A stretch of 58,189 nt of DNA, counting the filler, from Candidatus Woesearchaeota archaeon (lineage in GTDB: Archaea > Nanobdellota > Nanobdellia > Woesearchaeales > ARS49): NCBI GenBank assembly GCA_016188265.1. It is 3 parts of 3 records of this genome, joined end to end, with 100 filler letters (N's around TTAATTAATTAA, not from the genome) between each part and the next. Parts side by side here need not be neighbours in the genome. Positions count along the whole stretch, not along the records: positions 1 to 25,113 come from JACPID010000014.1; 2 more parts are not named here. One strand, given 5' to 3'. Made by a program: the position numbers. Below, piece by piece: positions 3,001 through 6,000 of this stretch (its first letter is position 1; each line of letters begins with the position of its first letter).

Positions 3001-6000
3001 GCGCTTAAACCAAAACCAGTAATTAAAAATAAACTCAACAAAACAAATTTGTATTTTAACTTAATTTTATTATTAAAAAAAATCAGCAAAACACATAAAA
3101 ATAAAGCATAAGGAACAAAAAATACACCTCCTGAATGAATTTGCAAAGCTAAAAATACACCTGCCACAATCATGTGCAAATAAGATTTTTTTCTAACAGC
3201 CATAACAACAAATAAAATAATCAATGGCAGGATTGCATAAGAAAATAAAAAAACAATCCAACCCGCACTTATTAAGAAAAATATTAAACCATTGGTTACA
3301 TAACCAAAAGCTGCAATTAATGAAGCTCCGCTATTTTTTGTAAAATAAAAAACACAGAAATACATTCCTAAAAAAGCAATTATGATATGTGATAAAATTA
3401 AAAGATTAACTAAAAGAATATCAGTATTGATAAATAAAAGAAGCATCAGCAAAGGATAATATGTTGGTGTGTGCAAAATTGCATGATGCGGATGGCCTAA
3501 AAAAGTATAAGGATTCCACCAAGGCAGTTGAAAGCTTTGATAAGATTCATGAATAAAATGAATATCAGGAATATAATGATCTAATTCAGAAGGCATAATT
3601 GTATAAGAAGAGCTTATTATTGAATTGAAAAATAATACTAGCCATGCAAAAAAAAGAGTGAAACTAACAATATGCTTCTTCATTAAAAACAAGAATAAAT
3701 CATGTGTTAATAAAATTTTATACGAAACGTTTAAAAACGAGTTTAAAGATCACTTTATTGGCGAACTAAGCTGGGAGGGTTAGCACGCTCCTGTAACCGT
3801 AAACGTGCTTTAGACGGAGTTGAAGTGAGAAAGGCGGTATAATTTTTTCGTCTCAGTCTCATGCTGGACAATGATGTGTTGTCCTCTTTGGTGGTTGTTG
3901 CAAGAAATGTGTCAGGTCCGGAAGGAAGCAGCACTAATTGTACCAGTCCATGCTTTGAGGGTTGCAGTACAGAGAAATGCTTGAGGTAGCTGGACAAAAA
4001 CTTTATATCCACTTTTTTGCACGTTCGCCACTTTATGCCGCCGTGGCACAATTGAAATCAGAAATCTATCAAAAACTCTGGTTTCAGATGCAACCTGGTA
4101 CTGCGCCGGTCTTGAAACACAAAACTTTGTGTCTTGAGAACCGGTTCCCGAAAGGGTCTCCCAGTTCAAATCTGGGCGGCGGCGCTTTTTCCTTATTTTG
4201 TATATGCTCTTAGAAAATAATACACCTGAGCTCTTCTATTTTTCTGAAATCATTATCTTTTGTTACTAAAGTTAATCCATTCTCGTATGCTTGTACTGCA
4301 AAACATATACAAAACGAAAGATTAAATAGTTCTAAATAATCTTATTTAATACTAAATAACAAGTGAGAAAATGGTATTAAAAACATTTAACGTTGAAGAA
4401 GTAGTATATAAAAAGTTTTCAGATTTTTGTAAGGGGCATGGTGTTAGTATGAGCAAACAAGTAGAGCTATTTATGGAGTCTATGGTAGAAGAAGAACCAG
4501 AAGCAAAGCAAGAATATCTCCAAAAATTGGAAAGAATCAGAAAAGGGAAGTTTATGAGAGTAGATAATTTCGCTAGCAGGTACGGAATATAATTATGGCT
4601 TATTATTTAGAGTTCATATCAGTAAATCTTTTGTTTTAACTTTTGAGATAAATGAAAAAAATAAAGTTGTAAGACTTCTAGACTATGATCATCATGATAA
4701 CATATATTAAGAACCATGCCTAGTACGGGCCCATTTCCAATGGATTTGACATTAAAGTTTAATGCCCCGTACGGGATTTGAACCCGTGTCTGAGCCTTGC
4801 ACTAACTTGTTGAACAGTTTCGAGAGGGCTCCATCCTTGACCGGACTAGACTAACGGGGCTTTTGTTAACTTAACTTAATAAAGCAAATACTGCAACAGG
4901 AACTATCTTAACTCGCTCATTTAAGTTGATCTCTTTTTTTGATAAAATTAATTTATGCGCTAAATCTATTTTAGGAAAATCTTTTATTGAAACGCTTTCC
5001 TGCCATTTAACTTCTATTCCTGTTGTTCCATAAATAAAATCAATTTCTTTAGATTTCCTTAAAAATTTGACATTTAATTTATTTCTTCTTAAACACTCTC
5101 CGACAATACCCTCTACAATTTTAGGAATATCATTTATATTCTCTTCAGCAATGCCGAGAGTTTTAAAAGAGGCGATATGAAAAATAAATGGATCTATGAA
5201 ATAAACTTTTCTTTCTTTTTTGAAAAAAGGAGTTTTATCATATTCTTTCCAATAACTTCTTATAACGTATAAGCTTTCAAGAACCTCCAAGTAATCCCTC
5301 ACAGTTATGTGTGATGGAATTTCAACTTCTTTAGCGATGGAGCTTAAAGAAAATGACGAGGAGTATCTTTTAACAATTCCTTTCAAAACCGCGCTTAAAG
5401 TACGCTCACTTAAGCCAATGCTGGAAATATCTCCGGCAATCCAATTCCAGTAAATCTGAAACGTTTCTTCTTTGATTTTTCCTTCTTCTATTAATTCATA
5501 AGCCGCGCGTAAAAAACCTCCGCAATGAATATAAAAATTAAACAACTTATTAATTTCATTGATGTATGGGGCTAACTTTAGGGTATTTTTAATGATGCTT
5601 TTAAAATCAATTCTTTGAGGAATTTCTTTTTTCAAAGAACTGCTGCCAAAAACTTTGCAAAATTCTCTGAAACTAAGCGGTAAAAACTCTTTGATTTTTA
5701 TCGGCCTTCCAGGAAATCTTTCTTTTTGAAGCTCTAATGTTGTAGATCCTGTGAAATAAAAGTTCATTCCCTCGTTAAGATCCTTAATTTCAAGAATTTG
5801 CTTAACAGCACGCTCCCAATTCTTGACAAAACTTATTTCATCGATAAAAACATACTTTCCGCCAGTCTTTTTAAAAAACGAAACTATATCAATAATATCT
5901 TGGGGGTTCATAACTAAATTACAGACAAAATAGAGGCATTGCTTTATCTGAATACCTTTATCGAAGAGTTCTTTTATGCAAAGTTTTAAATAAGTAGTTT

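Follow-up and report, generated by a model that had tools for sequence, protein, structure and literature searches.

The window, a stretch of 58,189 nucleotides (filler included) from a Woesearchaeales genome, carries at 3759-4030 on the plus strand a gene for signal recognition particle (SRP) RNA that lacks helix 6. Comparison of sequence and predicted structure confirms this stretch as a genuine SRP RNA gene of a Woesearchaeales-type DPANN archaeon. We give a probability of about 0.72 to the reading that best explains the data as a whole: the RNA would have the form typical of DPANN, it would be a working one in a particle with SRP54 as its only protein, and helix 6 and SRP19 would have been lost once, on the DPANN stem.

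A cmscan search of the whole window places the archaeal model RF01857 (Archaea_SRP) at 3759-4030 (+) with 119.5 bits over model positions 1-317, above the gathering cut-off of 96.5 bits, and this match is the sole one in the genome. Helix 1, the Alu domain, helix 5 and helix 8 all align to the model; bases fill 0 of the 40 positions of helix 6, and helix 8 is intact, which bears out the deletion reported in the genome-wide survey's note. The same stretch scores 68.6 bits against the bacterial large-SRP model RF01854, also above its cut-off (60 bits). The predicted product is a linear, intron-free SRP (7S) RNA of 272 nt, closed by helix 1, the 5' strand of which (3759-3766) pairs with the 3' strand (4023-4030) according to the cmscan structure line. 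The Alu domain (3773-3817, cmscan) comprises helix 3 (3773-3791), the UGU U-turn motif (3792-3796) and helix 4 (3797-3817), and both the UGU motif and the pairing of loop 3 with loop 4 are present; a complement of at least five bases between these loops occurs in 108 of the 146 DPANN RNAs compared, whereas mismatched pairs show one in 239 of 1460 cases. The 5' strand of helix 5e/5f lies at 3872-3897, with its partner at about 3944-3971 as judged from alignment covariation. At 3897-3898, the usual branch point of helix 6, helix 5 leads into helix 8 (cmscan, covariation). Helix 8, the SRP54-binding helix (3898-3943; cmscan, alignment), has its asymmetric loop at about 3905-3908/3935-3937, its symmetric loop at 3913-3916/3927-3930 and a tetraloop of the GRRA type, GGAA, at 3920-3923. 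A single bulged G at 3952, located 29 nt past the tetraloop in the alignment, is the candidate distal GTPase-activating base. All of these elements are on the plus strand.

Inspection of the upstream sequence on the same strand reveals a TATA-like box at 3730-3735, approximately 29 nt before the gene, which is its putative promoter. A TATA-like hexamer starting between -24 and -30 precedes 57 of 69 Nanobdellota SRP genes, a count made without a shuffle control. A sigma-70 promoter scan, of a type unsuited to archaea, gave 0 sites. ARAGORN called no tRNA in the window, and a tRNA-like stretch downstream likewise received no call in a strict two-intron splice test. The SRP RNA locus is interior to its contig and clear of scaffold gaps. 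The SRP RNA stretch is spanned without a single difference by a contig from a possible source run, and in a second study the sequence of a related strain extends over 3567-4035, differing by 23 substitutions, with 0 gaps. The missing helix 6 is not an assembly artefact.

Folded alone, the sequence at 3759-4030 did not yield the SRP shape (z -2.3; 3 of 200 shuffles were equally good). The structure was therefore tested by comparison and rests on covariation. The S-domain alignment contains 68 RNAs, 53 from Nanobdellota and 15 from the phylum of an Aenigmatarchaeota-titled record, drawn from 101 intron-free rows after near-copies and rows with small indels had been dropped. A single hairpin running from helix 5e to the helix 8 tetraloop has 91.2% of its cells paired and compensatory changes on both sides in 34 of its 36 pairs, a level of pairing and covariation that was reached by 0 of 500 shuffles. 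For instance, the helix that crosses the former helix 6 junction has 21 of 23 pairs changed on both sides. When the partners were slid by 1-3 columns as a control, pairing fell to 38-48%, and the 671 compensatory cells of the hairpin compare with 83-163 in the slid versions. The structure was drawn from the same sequences and the Rfam line, which biases the comparison in its favor over the slid versions, and the excess of compensatory cells lies far beyond this bias. Judged by covariation, comparison shows helix 5 and helix 8 joined in a single uninterrupted hairpin with no three-way junction.

The spacing between 5e and helix 8 tells the two archaeal forms apart, with approximately 20-21 nt in DPANN rows and 59-63 nt in 79 non-DPANN archaea, the latter having been chosen by a pattern that requires a spacer of 54-68 nt. 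Three non-DPANN control RNAs show a full helix 6 in the RF01857 alignment and are 309-311 nt long. Beyond the junction, the bulged G (3952) is invariant in all 68 rows. The distance of 29 nt from the tetraloop to this base is found in 55 of 66 Nanobdellota, in 70 of 79 helix-6 archaea and in 8 of 27 bacterial large SRPs (13 of these were unscored), and it is the commonest distance in all three groups. Since the 5e/5f distal site is where the RNA activates the GTPase pair in E. coli (PMC5224484), we infer that the bulged G may play the same distal role here.

The genome-wide survey's note had treated the missing helix as a trait of Nanobdellota. It does hold there, with RF01857 matching in 142 of 151 genomes, but the restriction does not, as the trait is found in five DPANN phyla. 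The other phyla were reached through a helix-6-less pattern that matched Aenigmatarchaeota- and Nanohalobium-titled records. An SRP RNA was found in 329 of the 344 genomes of the five phyla: 313 copies are 262-289 nt long, 2 are partial and 14 are longer. Among the 142 Nanobdellota RNAs, 137 measure 263-278 nt, 3 are long and 2 are partial, one being cut at a contig end with 0 of 40 helix 6 positions filled and the other consisting of the 5' half only. Four of the Nanobdellota genomes missed by RF01857 were tried with a purpose-built model, which recovered a helix-6-less RNA in 3. The phylum of the Aenigmatarchaeota-titled record has the RNA in 79 of 81 genomes (68 at 266-289 nt, 11 at 306-358 nt) and that of the Nanohalobium-titled record in 38 of 40 (262-282 nt). 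Similarly, it is present in 41 of 41 genomes (269-282 nt) of a phylum with Diapherotrites-named proteins nearest to its SRP54, and in 29 of 31 (266-278 nt) of a fifth DPANN phylum. Single alignments from the Nanohalobium-titled, Diapherotrites-like and 31-genome phyla each filled 0 of 40 helix 6 positions. The junction was inspected directly in 66, 35, 30 and 12 RNAs and in a few nanohaloarchaeal ones; elsewhere length serves as a proxy. The absence of helix 6 is confirmed across five DPANN phyla and both DPANN clusters, in a sample that stops short of the RNAs of Micrarchaeota and Altiarchaeota.

Pattern scans complement this picture. A helix-6-spaced pattern returned 79 archaeal titles, none of them bearing the name of a DPANN phylum; one is titled only "archaeon", and that genome has SRP19. 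Two pattern scans were dominated by bacteria, with 114 and 108 bacterial titles out of about 120, and a metagenome scan gave only RNAs resembling those of the Diapherotrites-like phylum. Some records titled "Methanosarcinales" also lack helix 6. Four RNAs and one SRP54 tested from these records group within Nanobdellota, so we treat their titles as mislabels. We also considered whether UGAC or UGAU loops in helix 8 reflect release from the helix 6-8 clamp; they occur in 10 of 66 Nanobdellota but also in 7 of 79 helix-6 archaea, and the idea was rejected.

The RF01857 alignment places the extra bases of the long copies in the helix 6 slot, and these copies therefore needed checking. Alignment of 15 RNAs, namely all 14 long copies and a further one of 289 nt, against a profile that permits a free jump located 19 inserts at a variety of sites, in the Alu domain, in helix 5, on both strands of helix 8 and in the tetraloop. 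None of the 19 is a canonical helix 6. The long RNAs (306-358 nt) were thereby rejected as helix 6 bearers; in the three Woesearchaeales cases, for example, the insert lies within helix 8 and not at the junction. At their best splice junction, 11 of the 19 inserts have ends of the tRNA-intron type (bulge-helix-bulge, BHB), defined as a 4-bp helix with two 3-nt bulges at a junction that restores the canonical RNA, and 8 lack them at the computed junction; splicing is a prediction, and the background is about 1% of arbitrary junction pairs, somewhat higher for hairpin-shaped inserts. The sole candidate exception to the absence of helix 6 is a long RNA (G366, L378) with a 43-nt hairpin exactly at the helix 6 position. 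This hairpin has BHB ends at its single best junction and no GNAR loop, and the same gene holds a second intron-like insert, which is why we read it as a probable intron. Plagens et al. (2015, PMC4731332) proposed that permuted SRP genes arose from an ancestor with simple BHB introns. By slotting such introns at helix 6, Rfam alignments can mask the absence of the helix.

In the textbook particles of archaea and humans, helix 6 holds the protein SRP19, and this protein went undetected as well. The Pfam model PF01922 found no SRP19 over cut-off in 301 Nanobdellota genomes, which upholds the absence reported for this phylum by the survey, nor in the 81 genomes of the phylum with the Aenigmatarchaeota-titled record or the 41 of the Diapherotrites-like phylum. 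Weak PF01922 matches, at E up to 1 and all below cut-off, occurred in 42 of the 301 genomes, and in the recurrent one that we examined the open reading frame reads as ribosomal protein uS7. A profile of 82 SRP19 sequences, built from a search of 1.8 billion proteins, gave only three marginal matches in 293 genomes: 2 in 201 (both in frames of 417-432 aa, E above 0.01), 1 in 61 (26 columns, E 0.017) and 0 in 31. Against the six frames of the present genome, a 162-sequence profile reached a best E of 0.098, as compared with 1e-26 to 1e-35 for controls. Control genomes with helix 6 were positive for SRP19 in 4 of 4 and 4 of 5 cases (8 of 9 overall). The negative one is a Hadarchaeota-titled genome in which helix 6 is present, and another genome with a Hadarchaeota title has a partial SRP19 match of 61 bits. 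An ESM Atlas query with SRP19 returned non-DPANN organisms as its commonest taxa, which says nothing on range. The absence of SRP19 in DPANN has already been tabulated (2026, PMC13473441): according to Supplementary Data 25 of that study, SRP19 stands at 0% in each of the 12 DPANN lineages as well as in Hadarchaeota and at 91-100% elsewhere, and SRP54 at 86-100% in DPANN lineages; the main text does not mention "SRP". Within the limits of profile searches, our comparisons show no detectable SRP19 gene in the DPANN genomes searched. The architecture claimed for this particle, with Alu domain, helix 5 and helix 8 and with neither helix 6 nor a detectable SRP19, stands.

Since helix 6 is missing and SRP19 was not found, DPANN cells appear to run a one-protein (SRP54) particle that has the shape of the long bacterial SRP. 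In the RNA, the Alu domain is retained, as are the 5e motif, the bulged G and the two loops that bind SRP54. In the proposed mechanism, SRP54 would attach directly to helix 8, with neither a helix 6-8 clamp nor a step involving SRP19. The particle would take up a signal sequence or membrane anchor at the ribosome exit and then dock on FtsY, and the GTPase pair would relocate to the distal site at 5e/5f, just as it does in bacteria that have a long SRP, while the Alu domain touches the factor site of the ribosome. Archaeal SRP54 can bind RNA without SRP19, and SRP19 is dispensable in Haloferax, where its gene can be deleted (PMC2905702). In a cultured nanohaloarchaeon, SRP RNA reached 173,757 RPKM and both Ffh and FtsY were expressed; the SRP RNA printed in that report shows, by eye, a 21-nt spacer (PMC10266531). 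These observations fit an SRP54-only mechanism, which we propose for the RNA of the window.

Two alternatives concern the particle itself. It is quite unlikely that this one genome has truly lost the SRP pathway and left its RNA an orphan. In the bin, rated 98% complete, neither an SRP54 M domain nor an SRP54/FtsY GTPase scores over cut-off, a caveat that the survey had rightly attached to its claim for SRP54, and the SRP54 and FtsY genes of relatives occupy separate loci. However, the bin also lacks prefoldin alpha, Dph6 and lysyl-tRNA synthetase (best class II match 25%, class I below cut-off), and these are neighbors of the missing genes elsewhere: LysS and Dph6 flank SRP54 in several family genomes, and prefoldin alpha adjoins FtsY in other DPANN. 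In addition, the SRP54 M domain is present in 147 of 151 Nanobdellota genomes and in 16 of 16 of the family, the contigs of the bin end at repeats, and the motifs of the RNA are intact. SRP54, FtsY and lysyl-tRNA synthetase are probably missing through assembly gaps or missing contigs. Very unlikely, too, is a strongly diverged SRP19, or another protein, that continues to bind the S domain. Among the named controls, Sulfolobus escapes PF01922, just as the earlier note had warned, genome searches begin with a loose first look, and DPANN proteins evolve fast; nevertheless, three profiles and the published arCOG survey (table in PMC13473441) concur on the absence, the recurring weak match that was examined reads as uS7, and helix 6, which makes up half of the site for SRP19, has disappeared.

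The remaining alternatives concern origin. Under the favored explanation, the archaeal ancestor would have possessed helix 6 and SRP19, and a single loss on the DPANN stem would have returned the particle to the long-bacterial shape; for the five phyla sampled, we hold such a loss to be probable. It also fits current rooting models (PMC13473441). The supplementary table of that study gives SRP19 a presence probability of 1.0 for the ancestor of archaea and of 0.3 for that of DPANN, with a Euryarchaeota root assumed; these values hinge on the assumed root. The label "Bacillus-like" given by the genome-wide survey's note is apt for the shape, which long bacterial SRPs from Chloroflexota, Actinomycetota and Planctomycetota also have, but not for descent. 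Replacement of the archaeal RNA by a bacterial large SRP RNA through transfer could account for the RF01854 score and for a helix 8 that resembles the bacterial consensus, and it is nonetheless hardly credible: the RNA scores as archaeal despite the 40-position gap, and in a tree with the junction columns removed, a branch of 0.59 (100/100, from a bootstrap that had not fully settled) separates all 22 bacterial rows from all 82 archaeal rows. DPANN and helix-6 archaeal RNAs are unresolved in this tree, with the monophyly of neither rejected (p-AU 0.10 and 0.14; 0.10 for DPANN). This combination makes bacterial transfer unlikely and leaves the RNA silent on the root; by comparison of sequence, the RNA is archaeal by descent and not a bacterial import. 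The RNA tree was discarded as evidence on the root, as a clade of helix-6 archaea (96) vanished once the junction columns were dropped and was thus an artefact.

A different history, which we consider doubtful, would leave the mechanism of the particle as described. The common ancestor of bacteria and archaea would have had an SRP of Alu domain, helix 5, helix 8 and one protein, DPANN would have retained it, and helix 6 with SRP19 would have arisen once on the branch to other archaea and eukaryotes. One gain then suffices in place of a gain and a loss, aligned DPANN rows show no remnant of helix 6, and outgroup rooting gave a DPANN root as the best tree, one that could not be rejected (PMC13473441). 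The shape is that of the long bacterial SRP, to the point that one pattern catches both, and in each the bulged G lies at the same distance of 29 nt. However, a clean excision of helix 6 leaves the same spacing, so the bacterial match cannot discriminate. DPANN also have a high rate of gene loss, the best-fitting reconciliation and non-stationary models reject a DPANN root (PMC13473441), and the vanished clade of helix-6 archaea offers this history no help. Several independent losses across DPANN phyla, driven by genome reduction, seem highly improbable. SRP19 does seem losable on its own, given the helix-6-bearing Hadarchaeota-titled genome with no match and the 0% tabulated for Hadarchaeota (PMC13473441), though another Hadarchaeota-titled genome has the 61-bit partial match, and DPANN RNAs do not form one clade in the best tree. 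Against this, a spacer of about 20-21 nt recurs in each of the five phyla, intermediate forms being absent, and the monophyly of DPANN RNAs was not rejected. The survey's claim that helix and protein were lost together stands as far as both are absent. Their joint loss would be an interpretation; the Hadarchaeota-titled genome indicates that the two need not be lost simultaneously, and our data fail to separate loss from never having had them.

Reviews describe the shape of archaeal SRP RNA as varying little (PMC2905702, PMC6098224), and Zwieb and Bhuiyan (2010), whom the survey cited correctly, report SRP19 in all archaeal subgroups, coexisting with helix 6, and regard the helix 6-8 clamp as probable in all archaeal SRP RNAs (PMC2905702). 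With the canonical archaeal RNA (RF01857, PMC2905702), the RNA of the window shares helix 1, an Alu domain that carries the UGU motif and complementary loops, a helix 5 that includes the 5e motif, the helix 8 loops and an archaeal sequence. It lacks helix 6 with its GNAR tetraloop, the three-way junction and the helix 6-8 adenosine clamp, and it has about 272 nt and no SRP19, whereas the canonical particle has SRP19 and an RNA of about 310 nt. The bacterial large SRP RNA (RF01854; Bacillota and others) has in common the Alu domain, the continuous helix 5/8, the 29-nt distance from tetraloop to bulged G and the lack of helix 6 and SRP19. It differs in descent: the Alu and helix 5 sequences of the window RNA are archaeal, and DPANN SRP54 is the archaeal orthologue, which PMC13473441 employs as a marker of vertical descent. 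The Haloferax volcanii SRP19 deletion strain (PMC2905702) has an archaeal SRP that functions without SRP19, but it is a laboratory mutant that keeps helix 6, whereas in DPANN both are naturally missing in whole phyla. The permuted SRP RNA of Thermoproteus (PMC4731332) shares BHB motifs only with the long DPANN copies; it keeps helix 6 and SRP19 and is BHB-processed, unlike the linear, intron-free RNA studied here. A literature search, with most subscription papers outside its reach, and three supplements of PMC7414124 yielded no description of a missing helix 6 in DPANN.

These findings indicate that a large share of archaeal diversity breaks the rule on helix 6 and SRP19 given in reviews. An SRP without helix 6 is surprising in the light of those reviews and mechanistically plausible, since SRP19 is known to be dispensable. 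As a discrete character across both DPANN clusters, the missing helix offers a test of DPANN monophyly, including Altiarchaeota, that does not depend on sequence trees, and it is relevant to the dispute over the archaeal root. If the SRP without helix 6 were the ancestral form, helix 6 and SRP19 would be a later invention uniting the other archaea with eukaryotes, and the SRP would be a rare structural character placing the archaeal root between DPANN and the rest; the DPANN particle would then be shared with deep-branching bacteria and not reduced. In either case, DPANN would provide a natural minimal archaeal SRP, and with it a system for asking what helix 6 and SRP19 contribute.

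Within one genus of Woesearchaeales, intron-like inserts were found in the SRP RNA at a single site on the 5′ strand of helix 8, measuring 37 nt in genome G042 (locus L040), 46 nt in G015 (L041), and 45 nt in G087 (L042). All three are bordered by bulge-helix-bulge (BHB) ends, the splice motif of the tRNA-intron type, and their removal leaves a canonical RNA; judged from sequence, they are probably tRNA-type introns within the SRP RNA. Six further members of the same genus have SRP RNA matches of the usual length.

Intron-like inserts also occur in the phylum of an Aenigmatarchaeota-titled record (G301), where those of loci L378-L388 and L393 are scattered over the tetraloop, helix 5, helix 8, and the Alu domain, with a maximum of two per gene. 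BHB ends lie at the computed junction in 8 of these 16 inserts. Elsewhere, the SRP RNA of L520 (genome G044) carries an 18-nt insert directly 3′ of the helix-8 tetraloop that, by eye, resembles a BHB intron, and that of L116 has an insert 3′ of helix 8.

Among the archaea examined for comparison, two Hadarchaeota-titled loci (L498 and L437) retain helix 6, and the searches for SRP19, the helix-6-binding protein, returned one partial match (61 bits) in one of their genomes and no match in the other; the Hadarchaeota entry in Supplementary Data 25 of PMC13473441 lists SRP19 at 0%. Helix 6 is likewise retained in Methanomassiliicoccales (L400, L409, L427, L447, L462, L501, and L509), whose helix-8 loop is UGAC, so the usual adenosine of the helix 6-8 clamp cannot come from that loop.

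Single genomes with incomplete or missing SRP components were also identified. The locus L397/L093 (contig C19 of genome G118, about 693-832) comprises only the 5′ half of an SRP RNA, stopping just upstream of helix 8, and a search of this genome with our model R1 found no S domain; the gene may be split, interrupted, or decayed. Searches for SRP RNA and SRP54 gave no match for either in G059 (0.5 Mb, one contig); G106 has an SRP54 match and no SRP RNA found with two models. Across the whole bin studied here, rated 98% complete, SRP54, FtsY, prefoldin alpha, Dph6, and lysyl-tRNA synthetase were all not found.

Positions 24971-25113, 41686-41795, 46108-46350, and 58083-58189 of the window hold short repeats that occur in multiple copies, each about 60-180 bp long and 92-100% alike. 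Copies lie on many contigs, several of them at contig ends, and these repeats likely caused assembly breaks. Direct repeats with a period of about 470 bp and 81-85% identity occupy 18709-20208.

Two tRNA genes of the window, at 4763-4860 and 25214-25302 (minus strand), contain extra segments of 26 and 19 nt, respectively, in the anticodon region according to cmscan, and ARAGORN called neither. A plus-strand tRNA-like stretch at 4037-4184, beginning 6 nt 3′ of the SRP RNA, was interpreted on visual inspection as a serine tRNA that carries two insertions. Neither cmscan nor ARAGORN reported a tRNA there, a strict splice test for tRNA failed, and 56 nt of the region are skipped in the related strain X5. 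The SRP RNA and the tRNA-like stretch could possibly be co-transcribed.
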